Part shown: in pieces, positions 1 through 8,921 of the stretch
Layout: every line of letters begins with the position of its first letter
How positions within the stretch are numbered: the first letter of the stretch is position 1
Virus record (IMG/VR): IMGVR_UViG_2585427740_000001
From: a virus
Lineage: Duplodnaviria > Heunggongvirae > Uroviricota > Caudoviricetes
DNA length: 23,852 bases
Direction: 5' to 3' (one strand)
Made by a program: the position numbers and the translations under genes
Notes under the pieces: generated by a model
The model's database searches: none
Seen by the model: only the letters and a program-made list of their open reading frames with translations
What the model was told of the DNA's origin: nothing

Positions 1-1284
1 TTACTTCTTCGCCTCTGCAACCACTTTACTACCCACGCCGCGGTTATTGTATTCCCACATGCGGTTGTAGTTAGTGTCATTCAGATTGCGCTGTATTTCG
101 TCGTTATCATCTACGCTGCCGGTATTACCCGCAAACGGACGATTAGAGATCACCGCATCGGCCCACGGTTTAGCCGTGTTAAAACCTTCGTTGATGGCGC
201 TATCACGGATCACCACCTGACCGTTGGTATTGGCATCAACATCCAGCGAGCGGCCCAGTTGCGCCACACCATCACCGAAAGCATTGAAACGGCTGTTTAC
301 GGCGAGGAAACCGTAGTAAATGTTGGACAGCGTAGCCGGTGCAAACACATACGCTTCTTGCTGAGTACGTGAGTTCACCACGCGGAATTCGGTGTTATCG
401 AACACCACTGCGCCGCGACCAGAAACGATATCCACATCCCCTTCAATGTAGCTGTTGGTCACCAGCGTACGCGGCTGACGATTTGTTTCCAGACGGTTCT
501 GCACACCGCTGTTGGTGACAAAGAAGGTGTTCTGACGACCGAGAATGTTAACGTTGTTAATCTGTACCTGGTCACCATCAGTACGCAGTGCCACCGCCGG
601 ATGGTTACCTGCATCTACGCTATCGCCCAGCGTGTTTTCGATGGTCAGATTTTGCAGTTGCAGGCCATTGTTTTGTGACCAGAAGACCGCAGAGCAGAGA
701 ACACCGATACTGTCGCTGCGTTTGCTCTGGCAGCTATCGTACATATACCACGCTGGTTTACCTGGCATATATTTGCCGCGCGGGTTGACGTCGTGACGCC
801 AGTCGGCAGGGCTCATGCCACCATCAAGGGAAAGCCCAATCTTCACATCAATCGGTTTTTCACCTGTACCGTACAGAGTAATTCCACCCGGAGCGGCAGG
901 GACATATACCGTTCCCTGATACTCACCAGGCATCACGGCAATATACTGGCGCTTGTTGGTACGCTTGATAATTGCCGCATCTACCGCCGCCTGAATCGTG
1001 GTATGCGTTACACCTTGAGTGCCCGCCGGGCCGACAACAAAGTCAGGTTGCGCAGGCAGGGTAATCGGGGAAGGATTCCACGCTGCAGCACCTGGTGTCA
1101 GGGATGCAAAATAGTGTTGAGCATCGAAATTCTGCGCTTCTTTTGCCGACAGAATCGGGCGAGAAGAGGTACCAGGCGCGGTTTGATCAGAAGGACGTTG
1201 ATCGGGCGGGGTTGAGCTACAGGCGGTCAGCGTCACGCCAAAAGCCAATGCCAGCGCCAGACGGGAAACTGAAAATGTGTTCAC
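1..1284 (-). CDS. ybhC: YbhC-like outer-membrane lipoprotein (pectinesterase / acyl-CoA thioesterase family); chromosomal flank of the lambda attachment site
   Basis: 427-aa ORF complete in window (stop at 1-3). N-terminal signal peptide with lipobox LTAC. Sequence recalled as E. coli YbhC, which borders attB-lambda. Confidence 0.88.
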   Translation of the reverse strand: MNTFSVSRLALALAFGVTLTACSSTPPDQRPSDQTAPGTSSRPILSAKEAQNFDAQHYFASLTPGAAAWNPSPITLPAQPDFVVGPAGTQGVTHTTIQAAVDAAIIKRTNKRQYIAVMPGEYQGTVYVPAAPGGITLYGTGEKPIDVKIGLSLDGGMSPADWRHDVNPRGKYMPGKPAWYMYDSCQSKRSDSIGVLCSAVFWSQNNGLQLQNLTIENTLGDSVDAGNHPAVALRTDGDQVQINNVNILGRQNTFFVTNSGVQNRLETNRQPRTLVTNSYIEGDVDIVSGRGAVVFDNTEFRVVNSRTQQEAYVFAPATLSNIYYGFLAVNSRFNAFGDGVAQLGRSLDVDANTNGQVVIRDSAINEGFNTAKPWADAVISNRPFAGNTGSVDDNDEIQRNLNDTNYNRMWEYNNRGVGSKVVAEAKK

Positions 1285-1330
1285 AGGTTGCTCCGGGCTA
1301 TGAAATAGAAAAATGAATCCGTTGAAGCCT

Positions 1331-1418
1331 GCTTTTTTATACTAAGTTGGCATTATAAAAAAGCATTGCTTATCAATTTGTTGCAACGAACAGGTCACTA
1401 TCAGTCAAAATAAAATCA
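1331..1418. other. attL: lambda-type attL: 15-bp common core GCTTTTTTATACTAA (1331-1345) followed by the P' arm with arm-type Int sites, running up to the int stop codon
   Basis: Exact lambda att core read directly in the sequence. The downstream AT-rich arm (GTTGGCATTATAAAAAAGCATTGCTTATCAATTTGTTGCAACGAACAGGTCACTATCAGTCAAAATAAAATCATTATTTG) matches the recalled attP P' arm. The bacterial side is contiguous with the ybhC 3' flank. Confidence 0.9.
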
Positions 1419-2489
1419 TTATTTGATTTCAATTTTGTCCCACTCCCTGCCTCTGTCATCACGATACTGTGATGCCATGGTGTCCGACTTATGCCCGAGA
1501 AGATGTTGAGCAAATTTATCGCTTATCTGCTTCTCATAGAGTCTTGCAGACAAACTGCGCAACTCGTGAAAGGTTGGCGGATCCCCTTCGAAGGAGAGAC
1601 CTGATGCTTTTCGTGCGCGCATAAAATACCTTGATACTGTGCCGGATGAAAGCGGTTCACGACGAGTAGATGCAATTATGGTTTCTCCGCCAAGAATCTT
1701 TTTGCATTTATCAAGTGTTTCCTTCATTGATATCCCGAGAGCATCAACATGCAATGTTGTTGGGATGGCAATTTTTACGCCTGTTTTGCTTTGCTCGACA
1801 TAAAGATATCCATCTACGATATCAGACCACTTCATTTCGCATAAATCACCAACTCGCTGCCCGGTAACAACAGCCAGTTCCATTGCAAGTCTAAGCCAAC
1901 ATGGTGATGATTCTGCTGCTTGATAAATTTTCAGGTATTCGTCAGCCGTAAGTCTTGATCTCCTTACCTCTGATTTTGCAGCGCGAGTGGCTGCGACCGG
2001 GTTTGTTGTTATATGGCCTTCAGCCATAGCCTCTCGGAATGCATCGCTCAGTGTTGATCTGATTAACTTGGCTGATGCCGCCTTTCCCTCGTCTATGTAT
2101 CCATTGAGCATTGCCGCAATTTCTTTTGTGGTGATGTCTTCAAGTGGAGCATCAGGCAGACCCCTCCTTATTGCTTTAATTTTGCTCATGTAATTTATGA
2201 GTGTCTTCTGCTTGATTCCTCTGCTGGCCAGGATTTTTTCGTAGCGATCAAGCCATGAATGTAACGTAACGGAATTATCACTGTTGATTCTCGCTGTCAG
2301 AGGCTTGTGTTTGTGTCCTGAAAATAACTCAATGTTGGCCTGTATAGCTTCAGTGATTGCGATTCGCCTGTCTCGGCCTAATCCAAACTCTTTACCCGTC
2401 CTTGGGTCCCTGTAGCAGTAATATCCATTGTTTCTTATATAAAGGTTAGGGGGTAAATCCCGGCGCTCATGACTTCGCCTTCTTCCCAT
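1419..2489 (-). CDS. int: Phage lambda integrase (tyrosine recombinase)
   Basis: 356-aa ORF whose translation (MGRRRSHERRDLPPNLYIRNNGYY...) matches lambda Int as recalled. Sits adjacent to attL P' arm and overlaps xis. Confidence 0.97.
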   Translation of the reverse strand: MGRRRSHERRDLPPNLYIRNNGYYCYRDPRTGKEFGLGRDRRIAITEAIQANIELFSGHKHKPLTARINSDNSVTLHSWLDRYEKILASRGIKQKTLINYMSKIKAIRRGLPDAPLEDITTKEIAAMLNGYIDEGKAASAKLIRSTLSDAFREAMAEGHITTNPVAATRAAKSEVRRSRLTADEYLKIYQAAESSPCWLRLAMELAVVTGQRVGDLCEMKWSDIVDGYLYVEQSKTGVKIAIPTTLHVDALGISMKETLDKCKKILGGETIIASTRREPLSSGTVSRYFMRARKASGLSFEGDPPTFHELRSLSARLYEKQISDKFAQHLLGHKSDTMASQYRDDRGREWDKIEIK

Positions 2490-2685
2490 TTCTGATCCTC
2501 TTCAAAAGGCTACCTGTTACTGGTCGATTTAAGTCAACCTTTACCGCTGATTCGTGGAACAGATATTCTCTTCCATCCTTAACCGGAGGAGGGAATATCC
2601 TGCATTCGCGCACCCATCGACGAACTGTTTCAAGGCTTCTTGGGCGTCGCTGGCGAGCGTTCCACTCCTGAAGTGTCAAGTACAT
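2467..2685 (-). CDS. xis: Excisionase Xis
   Basis: 72-aa ORF (MYLTLQEWNARQRRPRSLETVRRWVRE...) matching lambda Xis as recalled. 23-nt overlap with int start, as in lambda. Confidence 0.95.
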   Translation of the reverse strand: MYLTLQEWNARQRRPRSLETVRRWVRECRIFPPPVKDGREYLFHESAVKVDLNRPVTGSLLKRIRNGKKAKS

Positions 2686-2724
2686 CGCAAAGTCTCCGCA
2701 ATTACACGCAAGAAAAAACCGCCA

Positions 2725-2892
2725 TCAGGCGGCTTGGTGTTCTTTCAGTTCTTCAATTCGAATATTGGTTATGTCTGCATGTGCTATCTGCGCCCATATC
2801 ATCCAGTGGTCATAGCAGTCATTGATGTTCTCTGCTTCGATAACTCTGTTGAATGGTTCTCCATTCCATTCACCTGTGACTCGGAAGTGCAT
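2725..2892 (-). CDS. Small hypothetical protein (55 aa) directly upstream of xis
   Basis: ATG at 2892 preceded by GGAG 8 nt upstream. Below the 60-aa ORF-track cutoff; found by hand translation (MHFRVTGEWNGEPFNRVIEAENINDCYDHWMIWAQIAHADITNIRIEELKEHQAA). Confidence 0.45.
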   Translation of the reverse strand: MHFRVTGEWNGEPFNRVIEAENINDCYDHWMIWAQIAHADITNIRIEELKEHQAA

Positions 2893-2974
2893 TTATCATC
2901 TCCATAAAACAAAACTCGCCGTAGCGAGTTCAGATATAATTTCCACCAAAGGCAGTAGTTGCTGATGCTAAGAA

Positions 2975-3403
2975 TTATTCAATATCTATTCCTGTAATAT
3001 CTTTTATCTTTTTCCTTGCAAAGCCTTTTGCTAGTGATTTTGAAACACTTATTAGTGTACTAATTCCCTCATCCTTAAAGTTTGTTTTTATAGTTTGCCA
3101 GACCTCCTTTTGACGCAAGTCAGCAATAAAATCATGCCCTCTTGCTGTCAACCTCAGTGGTACTTCGATCCAACTATATCCAACACCTTCCCCTAACTCG
3201 TTGGACATTATATGACCGAACCCAGGTTTTCCATCAACCCTGACTATTAATTCGTAGTCGCATAATAATCGCATATGGAAAATAAAATTTTGGTCATATC
3301 TATTAAAGCCATTATCCTCTAGTTCACTAAGCATCGTGTCAGGGCCATGAGTTTTTTCGAATGCGATAAGTAGATCTTTTAGATATTGCTGGTCTAATTT
3401 CAT
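2975..3403 (-). CDS. Hypothetical protein, 142 aa, AT-rich orphan gene in the xis-exo accessory region
   Basis: Clean ORF with GGAGG 7 nt upstream of ATG. Composition more AT-rich than the flanking int/xis. No family recognised. Confidence 0.7.
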   Translation of the reverse strand: MKLDQQYLKDLLIAFEKTHGPDTMLSELEDNGFNRYDQNFIFHMRLLCDYELIVRVDGKPGFGHIMSNELGEGVGYSWIEVPLRLTARGHDFIADLRQKEVWQTIKTNFKDEGISTLISVSKSLAKGFARKKIKDITGIDIE

Positions 3404-3431
3404 TGCCGCCTCCGTGACATGTCACAGAGAT

Positions 3432-3770
3432 TTATATCATTAATTTTGTTTCGTGCCAGCCTTTGGTCACCCAGCATTGTGAGTCACCATTACACGGGCA
3501 TGAATTAACAGGAACTCTCTCGCCGCACTTACCGCAACGTTTTCTGCTGATCGATTTTATACGCCAGCGCACACGTGCATCATCCTGGCGGCTCAGTAAC
3601 GCGATGTACTCACCAAACTCGTAAGGCGCATGCCTGAAGCGGCGCGTGGCTCAGTTACGATCCAGCATTTCAATTTCCTGAGCATCAAGTACAAGCTCCA
3701 GCTTACGCATACCGGATGATGCTTGCTTGGCTCTCTGATCGACTTTGCGCTCTGCTGATGATTTAGCCAT
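3432..3770 (-). pseudogene. Small ORF interrupted by an in-frame TGA: 39 codons (3651-3770), opal stop, then 71 further in-frame codons (Cys-rich, CxxC...CxC) ending at TAA 3432-3434
   Basis: Hand translation of the minus strand: MAKSSAERKVDQRAKQASSGMRKLELVLDAQEIEMLDRN*ATRRFRHAPYEFGEYIALLSRQDDARVRWRIKSISRKRCGKCGERVPVNSCPCNGDSQCWVTKGWHETKLMI. AGGA-type RBS before the ATG. Confidence 0.35.
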
Positions 3771-3965
3771 TCTGCTTTTCCTGCATTAGGAGAAAGACAA
3801 TCATGGCGGCGCGGATACTTCCGGTATCTTTTTACTCGATATTACCCTTCAATGGCACATACAAGAAGAGAGCCATCAACAGGAGTGAGTGAGGAATCGA
3901 CAACCAGCAACGCTTAATTATCTATAGTGTCGTATTTGCTTCATAAAATATGGCGAATAACACAA

Positions 3966-3999
3966 AGCCCGCAGCAGCTCATTGTGCGGGCTTTTCTTA
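3966..3999 (+). terminator. Stem-loop (AGCCCGCA / TGCGGGCT, 8-bp stem) followed by TTTCTTAT; candidate intrinsic terminator
   Basis: Inverted repeat 3966-3973 / 3984-3991 with T-rich tail, read directly. Lies between the 4064-4679 gene and the small ORFs at 3432-3770. Confidence 0.4.
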
Positions 4000-4063
4000 T
4001 ACATACTTCCTAGAGATAATTCTATGGAGGCATTAAATTAATACTGTCATTGGTAATATCATA

Positions 4064-4679
4064 TTATCTAAAAGTCTTTCCACTTTTAACGTCTAGGTAT
4101 ATTCTGTTCGACAACGTCATTCCTCCGCAATATGTGAAATAGATGTTTTTCCCCTTATTGCTTGATGCCATCCACCCTCCGATTTCCTTAAAGTCGCTTT
4201 CCGTGCAGACCCCTTCGTTTATTAACTTCCTAGCTGCCGAAGAAAACTCTTTTTTGTATATACGGTAGTCATCAGATCCTTTGATTAAAGTATCATCTCC
4301 GCTCGCATTTTCAGCAGGATCTGATGGCCTTTCACTGCTAAGATCACTAAGTTTAACCCATTCTGAAAACTTGCCATTGACGATTCCGTTTTTTCTTGTG
4401 CAGGATTTATTACCTTCTTTAATATATTCGCTTTCCCCTCCCACACATGAGGCTGAATATGGCTCAGTTATACGAACCCATTCACCTTTTTTTTTCTAGA
4501 AAATCTACGCCTTCCCTGAAAAATAGTTTCCCAGCCACTCCACATTTACTTGAAGGGCAGGTATGTCTTTCCGTTCGATCAACAACAACCCAAAGTCTTG
4601 ATTCATTTTTTGCCATTGCCGATGGTATTTGAGATGAGACAATTAACGTAAGCCCTAAAATTAGTATTGATTTTTTCAT
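4064..4679 (-). pseudogene. Secreted protein gene (about 205 aa if intact) split by a frameshift inside an A9 homopolymer tract
   Basis: Upstream ORF (4482-4679) starts with a signal peptide (MKKSILILGLTLIVSSQIPSAMA) and has a good RBS. It ends at TGA just after nine consecutive A (plus-strand T9 at 4487-4495). The downstream ORF (4064-4444) continues open in the other frame through the tract; removing one A fuses them. Confidence 0.65.
4487..4495. repeat. Homopolymer tract (T9 on plus strand, A9 in the coding strand) at the frameshift point of the 4064-4679 gene
   Basis: Counted directly in the sequence. Confidence 0.9.
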
Positions 4680-4977
4680 TGTAATTTCCTTTTACTTTTT
4701 ACAAAGCGTTTAATCATGGCTGATTATCTTTAAGCGTAGTAACAGCCTTGTGCGAAACATGTTACCAAATCGCCATTTCAGTGTATCCGCAGTTAGGCTG
4801 CCACTTCAAGGATTCCTAATTACATGGTACGTAAGCGTAAAATCCCGTTGGTTGTCGGGTAATAACTCTGATCAAATCTCCCTTGTCTTTTGCTCTTACG
4901 TATGCAGCTCTTGTGTATTCAACCCAGGCCTCCAGTTCAGCAATACGCTTACTTCCATCCGAGATAACACCTTCTAC

Positions 4978-5229
4978 TCACGCTGCTCGTTGAGTTTTGA
5001 TTTTTGCTGTCTCCAGCTCAACACGCAGTTTCCTCACCGTTAGCGCAATATCCTCGTTCTCCTGGTCGCGGCGTTTGATGTACTGCTGGTTTCTTTCCCG
5101 TTCATCCAGCAGTGTCAGCACAATCGATGGTGTTACCAGCTCATGGAAAAGGTCCGCGTCAAATCCCCAGTTGTCATGCATTGCCTGCTCTGCCGCTTCA
5201 CGCAGTGCCTGAGAGTGAATTACGCTCAC
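4978..5229 (-). CDS. Hypothetical coiled-coil protein (83 aa to the first stop); the frame continues for 53 more codons after an in-frame TGA (to TAG at 4816-4818)
   Basis: GTG start overlaps the stop of the upstream TraR-like gene (GTGA overlap). Downstream region 4816-4977 is open in the same frame but has no start codon of its own. Confidence 0.5.
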   Translation of the reverse strand: MSVIHSQALREAAEQAMHDNWGFDADLFHELVTPSIVLTLLDERERNQQYIKRRDQENEDIALTVRKLRVELETAKIKTQRAA

Positions 5230-5447
5230 TTCGAACCTCTCTGTTTACTGATAAGTTCCAGATCCTCCTGGCAACTTGCACAAGTCCGACAACCCTGAAC
5301 GGCCAGGCGTCTTCGTTCATCTATCGGATCGCCACACTCACAACAATGAGTGGCAGATATAGCCTGGTGGTTCAGGCGGCGCATTTTTATTGCTGTGTTG
5401 CGCTGTAATTCTTCAATTTCTGATGCTGAATCAATGATGTCTGCCAT
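5226..5447 (-). CDS. TraR/DksA-family C4 zinc-finger protein (phage-encoded RNA polymerase-binding regulator family)
   Basis: 73-aa ORF with CxxC...CxxC spacing (CCECGDPID...CRTCASC) typical of the TraR/DksA C4 zinc finger. Confidence 0.8.
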   Translation of the reverse strand: MADIIDSASEIEELQRNTAIKMRRLNHQAISATHCCECGDPIDERRRLAVQGCRTCASCQEDLELISKQRGSK

Positions 5448-5545
5448 CTTTCATTAATCCCTGAATTGTTGGTTAATACGCTTGAGGGTGAATGCGAATA
5501 ATAAAAAAGGAGCCTGTAGCTCCCTGATGATTTTGCTTTTCATGT

Positions 5546-5761
5546 TCACCGTTCCTTAAAAACGCCGTTTAACATGCCGATTGCTAGACTTAAATGAGTC
5601 GGTGTGAATCCCATCAGCGTTACCGTTTCGCGGTGCTTCTTCAGTACGCTACGGCAAATGTCATCGACGTTTTTATCCGGAAACTGCTGTCTGGCTTTTT
5701 TGATTTCAGAATTAGCCTGACGGGCAATGCTGCGAAGGGCGTTTTCCTGCTGAGGTGTCAC
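5546..5761 (-). CDS. Hypothetical small protein (71 aa from GTG 5761; alternatively 93 aa from ATG 5827)
   Basis: ORF-track ORF 5546-5827. The GTG at 5761 overlaps the TGA of the upstream 27-aa peptide ORF (GTGA), suggesting coupling. The N-terminal 22 residues of the longer form look like out-of-frame translation of the peptide gene. Confidence 0.5.
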   Translation of the reverse strand: MTPQQENALRSIARQANSEIKKARQQFPDKNVDDICRSVLKKHRETVTLMGFTPTHLSLAIGMLNGVFKER

Positions 5762-5841
5762 TGAACAAGCCCCATGTCGGCAAGCATAAGCACACAGAAT
5801 ATGAAGCCCGCTGCCAGAAAAATGCATTCAGTGGTTGTCAT
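5758..5841 (-). CDS. Candidate 27-aa hydrophobic (single transmembrane) peptide MTTTECIFLAAGFIFCVLMLADMGLVQ
   Basis: ATG overlaps the TGA stop of the upstream 63-aa ORF (ATGA). Hydrophobic core of about 17 residues. Found by hand translation; below ORF-track cutoff. Confidence 0.35.
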   Translation of the reverse strand: MTTTECIFLAAGFIFCVLMLADMGLVQ

Positions 5842-6029
5842 ACCTGGTCTCTCTCATCTGCTTCTGCTTTCGCCACCATCATTTCCAGTTTTTGTGAAAG
5901 GGATGTGGCTAACGTATGAAATTCTTCGTCTGTTTCTACTGGTATTGGCACAAACCTGATTCCAATTTGAGCAAGGCTATGTGCCATCTCGATACTCGTT
6001 CTTAACTCAACAGGAGATGCTTTGTGCAT
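5838..6029 (-). CDS. Hypothetical protein, 63 aa, immediately downstream of exo in the leftward operon
   Basis: ORF with GAGG 6-8 nt upstream of ATG; same strand and spacing as the early-left operon genes. Confidence 0.55.
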   Translation of the reverse strand: MHKASPVELRTSIEMAHSLAQIGIRFVPIPVETDEEFHTLATSLSQKLEMMVAKAEADERDQV

Positions 6030-6180
6030 ACAGCCCCTCGTTTATTATTTATCTCCTCAGCCAGCCGCTGTGCTTTCAGTGGATTTCGGATAACAGAAAG
6101 GCCGGGAAATACCCAGCCTCGCTTTGTAACGGAGTAGACGAAAGTGATTGCGCCTACCCGGATATTATCGTGAGGATGCG

Positions 6181-6861
6181 TCATCGCCATTGCTCCCCAA
6201 ATACAAAACCAATTTCAGCCAGTGCCTCGTCCATTTTTTCGATGAACACCGGCACCATCTCGTCAAAACTCGCCATGTACTTTTCATCCCGCTCAACCAC
6301 GACATAATGCAGTCCTTCACGCTTCATACGCGGGTCATAGTTGGCAAAGTACCAGGCATCTTTTCGTGTCACCCACATGCTGTACTGCACCTGGGCCATG
6401 TAAGCCGACTTTATGGCCTCGAAACCACCGAGCCGGAACTTCATGAAATCCCGGGAGGTAAACGGGCATTTCAGCTCAAGGCCATTGCCGTCACTGCATA
6501 AACCATCGGGAGAGCAGGCGGTGCGCATACTTTCGTCGCGATAGATGATCGGGGATTCAGTAACATTCACGCCGGAAGTGAATTCAAACAGGGTTCTGGC
6601 GTCGTTCTCGTACTGTTTTCCCCATGCCAGCGCCTTAGCATTAACTTCCGGAGCCACACCGGTGCAAACCTCAGCCAGCAGGGTGTGGAAGTAGGACATT
6701 TTCATGTCAGGCCACTTCTTTCCTGAGCGGGGCTTGGCTATCACGTTGTGAACTTCTGAAGCGGTGATGACGCCGAGCCGTAATTTGTGCCATGCATCAT
6801 CCCCCTGTTCGACAGCTCTCACGTCGATCCCGGTACGCTGCAGGATAATGTCCGGTGTCAT
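6181..6861 (-). CDS. exo: Lambda exonuclease (Red-alpha)
   Basis: 226-aa translation ([30 protein letters not shown]...) matches lambda Exo as recalled. Confidence 0.97.
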
Positions 6862-7306
6862 GCTGCCACCTTCTGCTCAGTGGCTTTCTGTTTCAGGAAT
6901 CCAAGAGCTTTCACTGCTTCGGCCTGTGTCAGTTCTGACGATGCGCGAATGTCGCGGCGAAATATCTGGGAACAGAGCGGCAATAAGTCGTCATCCCATG
7001 TTTTGTCCAGGGCAATCAGCAGAGTGTTAATCTCCTGCATGGTTTCATCGTTAACCGGAGTAATGTCGCGTTCCGGCTGACGTTCTGCGGTGTATGCGGT
7101 ATTTTCGACAATGCGCTCGGCTTCATCCTTGTCATAGATACCAGCAAATCCGAAGGCCAGACGGGCACACTGAATCATGGCTTTATGCCGTAACATCCGT
7201 TTGGGATGCGACTGCCACGGCCCCGTAATTTCTCTGCCTTCGCGGGTTTTGAATGGTTCGCGGCGGCATTCATCCATCCATTCGGTAACGCAGATCGGAT
7301 GATTAC
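6858..7306 (-). pseudogene. bet: bet (Red-beta), 5'-truncated: only the C-terminal ~145 codons remain
   Basis: Translation from ...NHPICVTEWMDECRREPFKTREGREITGPWQSHPKRMLRH... to the C-terminus matches lambda Bet as recalled. The N-terminal ~115 codons are absent and the frame runs into ren-derived sequence on the opposite strand. Confidence 0.88.
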
Positions 7307-7426
7307 CGGTTCGCTACCAGGGAAGAACGGGAAGGAAAGGTGAGCACGAATCTGATTTTCAAGGAGTGTCGCCAGAGTGCCGCGATGAAGCGGGTGTTGG
7401 CATTTTATCGCGGCAATTTTCAATAG
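7304..7426 (+). pseudogene. ren: ren 3' fragment (last ~40 codons: YRFATREEREGKVSTNLIFKECRQSAAMKRVLAFYRGNFQ*)
   Basis: Plus-strand frame matches the recalled C-terminus of lambda Ren (...YYRFATREEREGKMSTNLVFKECRQSAAMKRVLAVYGVKR). It begins abruptly at the bet breakpoint. Confidence 0.7.
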
Positions 7427-7463
7427 ACTATGTACATAAAAATATCATTTTTTTAATACATGT

Positions 7464-7655
7464 CTAATTATTGGACGAAATTGGTTTTTGCTTTGGTTTA
7501 GTTAGCCTAGCAATCAAGCCAGAGGCAATAATGATGATCCAAGCAATTTGATGCAATGCTACTCCAATATAAGAACCTTTATAGATAATAAAGGCATAGA
7601 TCGCTAGAAACGAAATAAATATCCATAACGAAAGTTGATAAATTTTGGCGCGCAT
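7464..7655 (-). CDS. Possible small two-helix membrane protein (63 aa) in AT-rich insert
   Basis: ORF with two hydrophobic stretches; no convincing RBS; AT-rich DNA can yield spurious ORFs. Confidence 0.3.
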   Translation of the reverse strand: MRAKIYQLSLWIFISFLAIYAFIIYKGSYIGVALHQIAWIIIIASGLIARLTKPKQKPISSNN

Positions 7656-7911
7656 ATTTAATCCAATCAATCAGAAAGACGAGTAATCATAGAGGTACTA
7701 TCACCCGGGTAACTATTGCTATTATGAACGGATAGGATAGAGGCTTCAATAACATATGCATCAAGTATGATGGAATATGTAGGTGAAAATGACTTGTGTC
7801 AAATTTGTGGAAATGAGTACCATGTTTCTCTGAAATTGATGTCGTTAATGGCTAGTGATAGTGAACTTTTTTACTTTATAATTCCTTTGGTTATAACAAT
7901 AAGGTAAATTT

Positions 7912-8472
7912 ATGAAGAAGATAATATTATTAGCCATGATTATTGGTTCTTTAACAGGTTGCGCTAGTGTGCCACCATTGAATTTTTCAACACCTAACGT
8001 GGGAGTTAGCCAGAAAAAAATAGATGCTGAAATTAAGTCATTAACGGTATCACTTGCTCGTCCAGATGAGCAGAAAGGGGATATCACTGCTGGTATGGAG
8101 GCTATAACTCCAATTTGGCGTGAATCTTTGCAGGAAGCACTCGACCGAATGACTATTTTTCGTGATAGTTCACCAAATACGGTTAGCTTAAATGTTAAAG
8201 TGTTGGCTCTTGACGTTCCTGCTTTTGGTGTTTCAATGACAACTAAAGCAATTGCAAGGTATGAAATAATCAACCGTGCGAATGGTGATATTATATATAC
8301 GCAGGATATTGAGTCTACCGGTACTGTTCCAGCCAGTTACGCATTCTACGGTATTGTTCGAGCACGCGAATCTGTTAATCGCGCGGTGCAAAACAACATA
8401 ACGCAGTTCTTGCAAGCATTAGAAAGTGTTGATCTTTCTCGTCCAATGTTTCCTGTTAGGGTAGCTAAATGA
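7912..8472 (+). CDS. Lipoprotein, 186 aa (signal peptide with lipobox LTGC); function unknown
   Basis: MKKIILLAMIIGSLTGCAS... lipobox; AAGG RBS about 9 nt upstream. Stop overlaps the start of the next gene (ATGA). Confidence 0.8.
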   Translation: MKKIILLAMIIGSLTGCASVPPLNFSTPNVGVSQKKIDAEIKSLTVSLARPDEQKGDITAGMEAITPIWRESLQEALDRMTIFRDSSPNTVSLNVKVLALDVPAFGVSMTTKAIARYEIINRANGDIIYTQDIESTGTVPASYAFYGIVRARESVNRAVQNNITQFLQALESVDLSRPMFPVRVAK

Positions 8473-8921
8473 AGCGATTATTCGTAATTGCTCCACTCTT
8501 AGTGTTGGTTGGATGCGCACAAAATATATCGCCAAATAGTTATTCTGTTGGCTCTGTGGGCATGGTTAATCGAACTATCGCTGGTACAGTTATTAGTGCT
8601 AGGGGGGTTGATATCAGTGGGACTTCCGCGTTAGGCGGGACTGCTGGGGCTGCCGTGGGGGCAACCGCTGGTTCTGCGCTTGGTGGGGGAGTTCGTTCTA
8701 ATATCGTTGGTGCCGTTGGTGGTGCAGTCATTGGTGGTATTGCCGGGGCAGCAATCGAATCTTCAGCAACAAAACAAACAGGCATGGAATATGTTGTCGA
8801 AACTGAGAATGGGAATTTAATGACCATTGTTCAAGGCAAAGATCCGTTATTTACTCAAGGAAGTAAGGTCCTTGTTTTATACGGAAACCCTTCTCGCATA
8901 ATAACAGACCCGCGTCACTAA
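8469..8921 (+). CDS. SlyB/Pcp-like outer-membrane lipoprotein with glycine-zipper segment, 150 aa
   Basis: Lipobox LVGCAQ. Long Gly/Ala-rich zipper (GGTAGAAVGATAGSALGGGVRSNIVGAVGGAVIGGIAGAAIE) and a C-terminal region resembling SlyB as recalled. Translationally coupled to the upstream lipoprotein. Confidence 0.8.
   Translation: MKRLFVIAPLLVLVGCAQNISPNSYSVGSVGMVNRTIAGTVISARGVDISGTSALGGTAGAAVGATAGSALGGGVRSNIVGAVGGAVIGGIAGAAIESSATKQTGMEYVVETENGNLMTIVQGKDPLFTQGSKVLVLYGNPSRIITDPRH

Follow-up and report, generated by a model that had tools for sequence, protein, structure and literature searches.

Gene content of the interval between xis and exo

The virus record IMGVR_UViG_2585427740_000001 from IMG/VR (Caudoviricetes) is 23,852 nucleotides (nt) long, and this whole stretch is referred to below as the window. 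The interval analyzed here, positions 2893..6180, lies between xis and exo of a lambda-type prophage. All genes that separate exo from xis are on the minus strand, which is the leftward pL strand, and the open reading frames (ORFs) listed by a first-pass annotation of the sequence were all present there (Table 1). Lambda homology extends over window positions 1331..2940 and 4931..7310 at 97–98% identity. The Int, Xis, Orf55, and Exo proteins are 98–99% identical to their lambda counterparts and, considered jointly with orf60a, orf63, and orf73, these genes are 95–100% identical to the lambda versions. It is very probable that the interval is the exo-xis region, i.e., the distal part of the leftward early (pL) operon, of a defective lambda-family prophage, and that it consists of lambda's conserved block joined to a mosaic left half, with the whole in a state of decay. 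The region itself is a known one, and the variable gene set carried here is previously undescribed but unremarkable. The proposal that the interval is accessory and non-essential within a lambdoid genome was borne out.

Table 1. Features of the window in order of position (aa, amino acids; bp, base pairs; E, expectation value)
Feature	Position	Strand	Remarks
ybhC (host gene)	1..1284	minus	Start of the window
int	1419..2489	minus	Lambda-type prophage at att-lambda
xis	2467..2685	minus	Lambda-type; bounds the interval
orf55 homolog (lambdap35)	2725..2892	minus	54/55 residues as in lambda NP_597778; phrog_676, E 1.7e-39
Terminator-like hairpin	2912..2931	minus	Just downstream of the DUF2513 gene; within the lambda-homologous stretch ending at 2940
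Replacement module	2941..4930	minus	1990 bp, 41% GC; replaces lambda 29334..30093 (ea8.5 and C-terminal ea22)
DUF2513 protein gene	2975..3403	minus	142 aa, intact; 36% GC; GGAGG Shine-Dalgarno; DUF2513 (PF10711), 42.9 bits (gathering threshold 29.6); phrog_585
"Transcriptional regulator" pseudogene	3432..3770	minus	112 aa; Cys-rich C-terminal motif; phrog_536 over its full length, E 7.8e-48
HumD/UmuD′-type S24 peptidase remnant	3808..3913	minus	Internal fragment; no start codon; in-frame TAA at 3844
Exported-protein gene	4064..4679	minus	204 aa, phrog_8310; frameshifted here; signal peptide, predicted SH3b-like domain, alpha/beta C-terminal domain
ea22 remnant	4816..5229	minus	PF13935, E 9.3e-20; 83-aa ORF at 4978..5229, GTG start, equals the lambda Ea22 N terminus
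orf73	5226..5447	minus	TraR-like, 73 aa, intact; 72/73 residues as in the lambda ORF (difference A49V)
31-aa ORF	5454..5549	minus	Identical to the 31-aa ORF at the same position in lambda
orf61, 71-aa form	5546..5761	minus	GTG start (ATG in lambda and Chlobot); phrog_303, E 1.8e-42
27-aa hydrophobic ORF (MTTTECIFLAAGFIFCVLMLADMGLVQ)	5758..5841	minus	Overlaps the orf63 stop through ATGA and the 71-aa start through its TGA
orf63 (DUF1382)	5838..6029	minus	63 aa, intact; 60/63 residues as in lambda; PF07131, E 3e-31
orf60a (DUF1317)	6002..6184	minus	62/60-aa ORF, intact; 60/60 residues as in lambda; PF07026, E 2e-40
exo	6181..6861	minus	Bounds the interval opposite xis
Deletion joint	6858..7426		bet′ (minus, without its N terminus) abuts ren′ (plus) near 7304 (RefSeq annotation of EC416); lambda homology stops at 7310

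The locus in E. coli EC416 is near-identical, with 99.96% identity over 9 kb (three substitutions and one indel), and phage Chlobot (PP925838), in which both the gene order and the ea22 truncation are shared, matches at 97.7% across the entire 3.3-kb interval. Chlobot differs in that its 112-aa regulator and 204-aa gene are intact and in being a complete phage, in which bet, gam, kil, ral, and sieB lie upstream. Of 5,426 complete E. coli genomes, 117 contain 80% or more of the full interval. As a decaying copy, in a defective prophage, of a region that is named and actively studied, the interval has little significance as a discovery; the sole lead that we consider worth an experiment is the 27-aa peptide and the associated re-annotation of orf61.

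The right half is lambda's conserved block

The first-pass annotation had described the ORFs between xis and exo as a set different from lambda's and not assignable to known lambda genes. The second claim is refuted for 38% of the interval: positions 4931..6180 are 97% identical to lambda 30094..31347, and this is the published conserved exo-xis block. Its order is orf60a, orf63, the 27-aa ORF, orf61, the 31-aa ORF, orf73, and the start of ea22, so that the characteristic succession of orf60a (DUF1317), orf63 (DUF1382), orf61, and orf73 (TraR-like) is present. A different set is found in the left half only. The orf63 product also matched a nuclear magnetic resonance structure (PDB: 8dsb, E 5e-33).

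Ribosome profiling in lambda confirms orf60a, orf63, orf61, orf73, and ea22, plus extra peptides of 7 and 31 aa (reviewed in PMC8614690). Judged by length and position alone, the 31-aa ORF in the window is probably the "orf2313" of the lambda ribosome-profiling study. According to the literature, early translation of the block in an intact phage takes place on the pL transcript, and the block influences both host transcription and the choice between lysis and lysogeny. In lambda and Stx (Shiga toxin) phages, its products act early after infection or induction to bias this choice. The overlapping stop and start codons described below let ribosomes move from gene to gene.

The ORF that had been noticed as a TraR/DksA-like zinc finger is orf73. 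It was confirmed by PF01258 (E 7.7e-9, 35.8 bits against a gathering threshold of 24.9), and its TIGR02419 score of 55.7 bits was slightly below the cut-off of 59.7. The protein carries a D3-x-x-D6-x-A8 acidic motif and a C4 zinc finger (CxxC...CxxC; C35/C38/C56/C59), and both the zinc finger and the N-terminal DxxDxA motif are shared with F-plasmid TraR and E. coli DksA. Unlike those two proteins, it is a phage-encoded paralog in an early operon, with an activity that is deduced from sequence. The gene is not annotated in the RefSeq lambda genome, even though it has been studied: lambda Orf73 binds the secondary channel of RNA polymerase as a ppGpp/DksA mimic, alters initiation, reprograms host transcription in a TraR-like manner, slows host growth, and increases phage yield approximately fourfold (PMC9239242). 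Because 72 of 73 residues are identical to lambda Orf73, we infer that the copy here would bind in the secondary channel of RNA polymerase and mimic ppGpp/DksA.

At the left end of the block, orf73 is followed by the 83-aa N-terminal ORF of ea22 only, and not by an intact ea22 gene. Two indels set this ea22 apart from that of lambda, one additional A near 5003 and the loss of 4 nt near 4975, and they leave a stretch of approximately 30 nt in a shifted frame containing a TGA codon (4980..4978). After this stretch the original frame resumes and enters a C terminus unrelated to that of lambda. The double indel is also found in Chlobot, and RefSeq marks the gene as frameshifted and incomplete.

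The left half is a replacement module of mosaic origin

Among 50,697 phage records, the whole of the replacement module was found in Chlobot only, at 97.9% identity. The EC416 module is near-identical, with one extra A in the window. Profile searches placed every left-half ORF in an existing PHROG family, and each gene that is intact, or was formerly intact, is preceded by a good Shine-Dalgarno sequence. The left-half genes are real genes of the ancestral phage, and nothing points to a coordinated system. The left half is the known variable segment of the region, a recombinational mosaic probably inherited from a Chlobot-like phage.

The 142-aa protein had been called an AT-rich orphan. Its base composition is as described, and it is no orphan: it belongs to DUF2513, with more than 100 homologs across Enterobacterales that are typically located in prophage early-left operons near int. 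A winged-helix (MarR/PadR-like) DNA-binding fold is predicted for it. A literature search on DUF2513 returned an unrelated mention only.

The neighboring phrog_536 gene is interrupted by a nonsense change, TGT (Cys40) to TGA, at 3653..3651. The codon is TGT in Chlobot and TL-2011b, and intact copies of the gene are carried by Chlobot, by TL-2011b and phiV10-type phages, and by plasmid pECO-cbb3; the gene in the window is approximately 90% identical to the TL-2011b/phiV10 phage genes. A PDB sequence search with the regulator gave nothing meaningful. This gene is one of two ORFs that had been reported as opal-interrupted. The other, the UmuD-like frame, is interrupted by an ochre codon (TAA) instead, and the remaining in-frame TGA codons are the one at the end of ea22 and one just upstream of the 93-aa orf61 start described below. 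The UmuD-like sequence itself is a remnant. It matched positions 47–98 of the 129 in NF051876 with 53.7 bits, below the cut-off of 120, and Peptidase_S24 with 14.5 bits against 23.3; a full-length domain with the Ser-Lys dyad is absent. At the DNA level it is 86.8% identical to the umuD-like gene of phage D6.

The Chlobot annotation is misleading at this point. At 4041..4519 of that genome, the intact 112-aa phrog_536 gene is cut into a 46-aa "transcriptional regulator" and a 105-aa "UmuD-like protein". We rejected the latter as a real gene; only its first ~35–50 codons are HumD-like, and the remainder is an alternative frame of the regulator.

The gene for a 204-aa exported protein had been recognized as a frameshifted secreted protein, and this was correct. 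The window has a run of nine A residues (A9) at 4495..4487, compared with A8 and an intact ORF in EC416 and Chlobot. When an 85-nt probe over the A-tract was compared with complete E. coli genomes, 132 genomes matched and the match was inexact in 131 of them. The A9 frameshift either is confined to this genome or reflects a sequencing error in the homopolymer. Phase variation of the tract between A8 and A9 was rejected because 131 of the 132 genomes carrying the segment have no exact A9 match. Homologs of the protein with 60–69% identity and strikingly constant length are found in Pseudomonas and Aeromonas, and one has an integrase as its neighbor. When the 204-aa model was searched by fold against BFVD, no significant match other than SH3b came up.

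Some copies of these genes are carried by plasmids. Eleven of 138 E. coli matches to the 204-aa gene were on plasmids, and the 191-kb plasmid pECO-cbb3 (NZ_CP026206.1) has the block from orf55 to orf60a at 782..4223, including the intact regulator, adjoining an IS5 transposase and a truncated rrrD.

Lambda's exo-xis region shares with the window its position, strand, att site, flanking int, xis, and exo genes, and stop/start overlaps; orf60a, orf63, orf73, orf55, and the first ~80 codons of ea22 are 95–100% identical at the protein level. It differs in that ea8.5 and the C-terminal two thirds of ea22 are here swapped for 1990 bp of other DNA, orf61 is full length here and frameshifted in lambda, and pL and N are deleted here. 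The Stx phages Phi24B and 933W share the conserved block and a full-length orf61, with 100% identity over the 71-aa part, whereas their Ea22 forms are long, with DUF550 and DUF551, and they carry a second DUF1382 copy plus other genes in place of the variable set found here (DUF2513, phrog_536, humD scrap, and SH3b protein).

Overlapping junctions and predicted transcription signals

The chain of start-stop overlaps that had been described is real and contains more overlaps than were noted. ATGA overlaps were found at the exo/orf60a (6184) and orf63/27-aa ORF (5841) junctions, and GTGA overlaps at the 27-aa/71-aa (5761), 71-aa/31-aa (5549), and orf73/83-aa ea22 (5229) junctions. For ORFs of at least 25 aa, five [AG]TGA junctions were counted on the minus strand, compared with a mean of 0.64 and a maximum of 4 in 500 shuffles; the plus strand had one. 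A counted junction at 3403, between the DUF2513 gene and a 25-aa ORF in an alternative frame, is probably a chance occurrence.

The p1 promoter and t2 terminator are predictions whose sequences are given in PMC4195576. Both are preserved verbatim in the window: p1 at 5530..5498 (−35 TCATCA, 5530..5525; −10 TTTTATTAT, 5506..5498), inside the 31-aa ORF, and the t2 hairpin at 5524..5509, also overlapping that ORF. Apart from the published p1 prediction, no promoter-like site was detected on the minus strand of 2600..7400, and promoter-like matches upstream of bet′ (7802..7774, 7749..7721, and 7466..7439) occurred at chance frequency. An Rfam scan of 1200..8000 matched no RNA family.

The prophage has lost its early regulatory region

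At the deletion joint, approximately 8 kb of lambda-type DNA is deleted, and gam, kil, cIII, N, pL, rexAB, cI, cro, cII, O, and P are missing. A deletion running from within bet to within ren removed pL, N, cI, and the replication genes. With pL, N, and cI absent, transcription from pL under N antitermination is a feature of the ancestral state, as inferred from Chlobot. The exo-xis genes therefore have no native promoter or antiterminator and appear to be decaying. Four inactivating lesions lie within 3.3 kb: the nonsense change in the regulator, the +1 frameshift in the SH3b gene, the double indel in ea22, and the stop in the humD scrap. The region is likely to be largely silent in this remnant, and residual expression from orf73 downstream, if any, would require the predicted p1 or read-through.

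These observations bear on the proposal that the coupled ORFs are real, co-expressed genes. For the right half it is supported by the lambda ribosome-profiling data (PMC8614690); at this locus, it conflicts with the deletion of pL, N, and the immunity region and with the four lesions. On the sequence evidence, the description "co-expressed genes" would fit the ancestral phage better than the present locus.

A 27-aa ORF and the start of orf61

The literature describes orf61 as encoding 61 aa in lambda and 93 aa in Stx phages. In the window the 93-aa form would start from an alternative ATG at 5827, with an in-frame TGA just upstream, and its first 22 codons overlap the 27-aa hydrophobic ORF in a different frame. 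The lambda gene is the aberrant one. The window has A7 at 5695..5702, near 5702, where lambda has A8 (near 30860 of NC_001416), and the additional A truncates the lambda protein, as has been noted (PMC8614690); the long frame is retained in the window, Chlobot, and Stx phages. The first-pass annotation had instead modeled this stretch as genes of 63, 27, and ~71 aa, and that model was favored by our analysis of substitutions and mosaic joints.

The comparison covered 88 lambdoid loci, of which 80 came from IMG/VR and the others were lambda, imm21, 434, Chlobot, EC416, 1H12, PhiR63_2, and Phi24B. The IMG/VR loci were picked by identity to the 71-aa protein, so any synonymous excess in that gene is biased. 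The 27-aa frame is open in every one of the loci, and 78 of the 88 encode an identical peptide even though there are 11 DNA haplotypes. In the 27-aa frame, 9 of 14 variant site/allele events were synonymous (expected fraction 0.22, binomial P 9e-4), compared with 2 of 8 events in the overlapping orf61-extension frame (6 nonsynonymous, P 0.59), noting that the events are phylogenetically non-independent and the total divergence is small. The 31-aa ORF gave no clear synonymous excess (5 synonymous and 7 nonsynonymous changes, P 0.065).

The mosaic joints point the same way. In eight loci, orf63 has given way to a Dam-like methyltransferase gene whose TGA overlaps the 27-aa ATG; a GGGAGG Shine-Dalgarno sequence is located 6 nt upstream of that ATG. 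This puts the mosaic joint precisely where the 27-aa ORF begins. Distant Orf61 homologs from Klebsiella, Yersinia, and Vibrio phages have their first residue where the 71-aa form has residue 1, the 71-aa gene of PhiR5_1 is accompanied by neither the extension nor the 27-aa ORF, and the Prokaryotic Genome Annotation Pipeline calls the 71-aa form. Published AlphaFold and RoseTTAFold models of Orf61 differ over residues 1–23 of the 93-aa form only (PMC8614690).

Taken together, the substitution patterns and mosaic joints favor a succession of orf63, the 27-aa ORF, and the 71-aa orf61 over a single 93-aa Orf61. We put the chance that the 27-aa peptide is a genuine product at somewhat better than even, and it is probably membrane-inserted. 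By a slight margin over even, the orf61 of the literature may correspond to two coupled genes, a 27-aa hydrophobic peptide (5841..5758) and a 71-aa three-helix protein (5761..5546). The peptide is already present in databases as a "hypothetical protein", and a literature search found no paper discussing it. If this model is true, orf61-deletion phenotypes may belong in part to the 27-aa peptide, most strongly so for lambda because the lambda 71-aa frame is broken by the frameshift. The comparative evidence also bears on the published orf61 genetics and structural modeling: the accepted Orf61 N terminus shares its DNA with a 27-aa hydrophobic ORF under apparent purifying selection, and Orf61 proper probably starts 22 codons later.

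The name "cell division protein ZapA" that NCBI gives to many copies of the 71-aa Orf61 (WP_000188870.1 and relatives) is unsupported because the match to the ZapA profile PF05164 falls below the gathering threshold (E 0.014, 16.2 bits against 23.8, over 34 residues). There was no NCBIfam match, and a search of PDB sequences with Orf61 returned spurious ankyrin matches only. Like the chimeric "UmuD-like" ORF in Chlobot, this is a misleading database name. Correcting such names, and the false impression of novelty given by a lambda-derived right half and by an "orphan" that is a DUF2513 protein with a predicted winged helix, is part of the value of this analysis.

In Klebsiella phage ST13-OXA48phi12.5 (701..1139), a 72-aa Orf61-like gene is coupled to the stop of a cytosine methyltransferase gene and is followed directly by a TraR/DksA gene, beside int. 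The recurrence of an Orf61 (71 aa)-TraR pair beyond E. coli phages hints at a functional pair. A scan of genome contigs for Orf61 relatives yielded mostly lambda-control contamination and one informative locus, in Escherichia sp. E1V33. Lambda-type exo-xis contigs (L106–L119) were found in assemblies labeled Shewanella, Bradyrhizobium, Paenibacillus, Kitasatospora, and others; their 27-aa haplotype is that of lambda, several are ~48.4–48.5 kb long, and they are almost certainly contamination with lambda control DNA.

Alternative readings of the locus

The E1V33 locus weighs against the split of orf61 just described. There, the ATGA at the end of a 251-aa gene coincides exactly with the 93-aa start and is accompanied by a GGAGG Shine-Dalgarno sequence, and the start codon of the 27-aa frame has been lost. 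This locus is an argument for regarding the 27-aa and 31-aa ORFs as chance frames, with the 93-aa Orf61 as the genuine gene between orf63 and orf73; the 93-aa form is the one used in many annotations and in the literature (PMC8614690), and the lack of a clear synonymous excess in the 31-aa ORF is in keeping with it. We regard this as a serious minority possibility. It has to contend with the synonymous fraction in the 27-aa frame compared with that in the extension, the constancy of the peptide across haplotypes, the eight Dam-like joints at the 27-aa ATG, the 71-aa start of PhiR5_1 and the distant homologs, and the confinement of disagreement between the structure models to the first 23 residues. 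The three-gene model, with a 27-aa ORF between orf63 and a 71-aa orf61, remains the one favored here.

Two further readings concern how much function the interval retains. That it is silent and decaying is an interpretation of its sequence, and several points count against it. The conserved block and the DUF2513 gene are still intact, which could mean either that decay is recent or that they are in ongoing use from p1 or another promoter; the single-base homopolymer frameshift could be a sequencing error; and the ea22 truncation is also present in Chlobot, which is presumably viable, so it may be a tolerated or functional short form. A more extreme view is that the whole interval is non-functional debris of a dead prophage with no ORF still under selection, which the four lesions within 3.3 kb and the deletion of pL, N, and cI would suggest. 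We think this unlikely, given that the run of seven short genes from orf60a to orf73 is intact, as are DUF2513, orf55, xis, int, and exo, with 95–100% lambda identity, and that the block is conserved at 97.7% in Chlobot. Decay is therefore partial, as otherwise intact relatives share three of the four lesions. At the other extreme, the left module (DUF2513, regulator, and SH3b protein) might be a moron cassette that uses its own expression signals in the lysogen and benefits the host; a peptidoglycan-binding SH3b protein under winged-helix control might, for instance, exclude superinfecting phages at the envelope. The GC content of 36–39%, below that of the neighbors, the good Shine-Dalgarno sequence of each gene, the terminator-like hairpin after DUF2513, the signal peptide and predicted cell-wall-binding fold of the SH3b protein, and the presence of homologs of both genes beside integrases in unrelated Serratia and Pseudomonas elements are all compatible with such a cassette. 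Even so, it is improbable. The module is co-oriented with the pL operon, the minus strand has no promoter-like site in 2600..7400 except the predicted p1, and the SH3b gene is frameshifted and the regulator has a nonsense change; therefore, no selected function is maintained in the window. A PADLOC search with the DUF2513 protein, the regulator, the SH3b protein, Orf61, and Orf55 matched no defense component, and the exclusion or defense role that had been suggested for the interval found no supporting evidence. The reading that accommodates these observations best is still that of an exo-xis region in partial decay.

Flanking features

A strong terminator-like hairpin is located on the minus strand at 2716..2735, between orf55 and xis, with an 8-bp stem and a T-run. 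It has a complementary counterpart on the plus strand, and the stretch is identical to lambda.

Beyond the deletion joint, the RefSeq annotation of EC416 lists two lipoprotein-like genes followed by a DLP12-like nin/Q/lysis/tail-fiber remnant. An AT-rich island (32–41% GC) extends over 7350..8921 at the joint. It includes an unannotated 68-aa membrane-like ORF on the minus strand (7464..7670) and, on the plus strand, the two lipoprotein-like ORFs, one of 186 aa with the lipobox LTGC (7912..8472) and one of 150 aa that is glycine-rich, has the lipobox LVGC (8469..8921), and is coupled to the first by an ATGA overlap.

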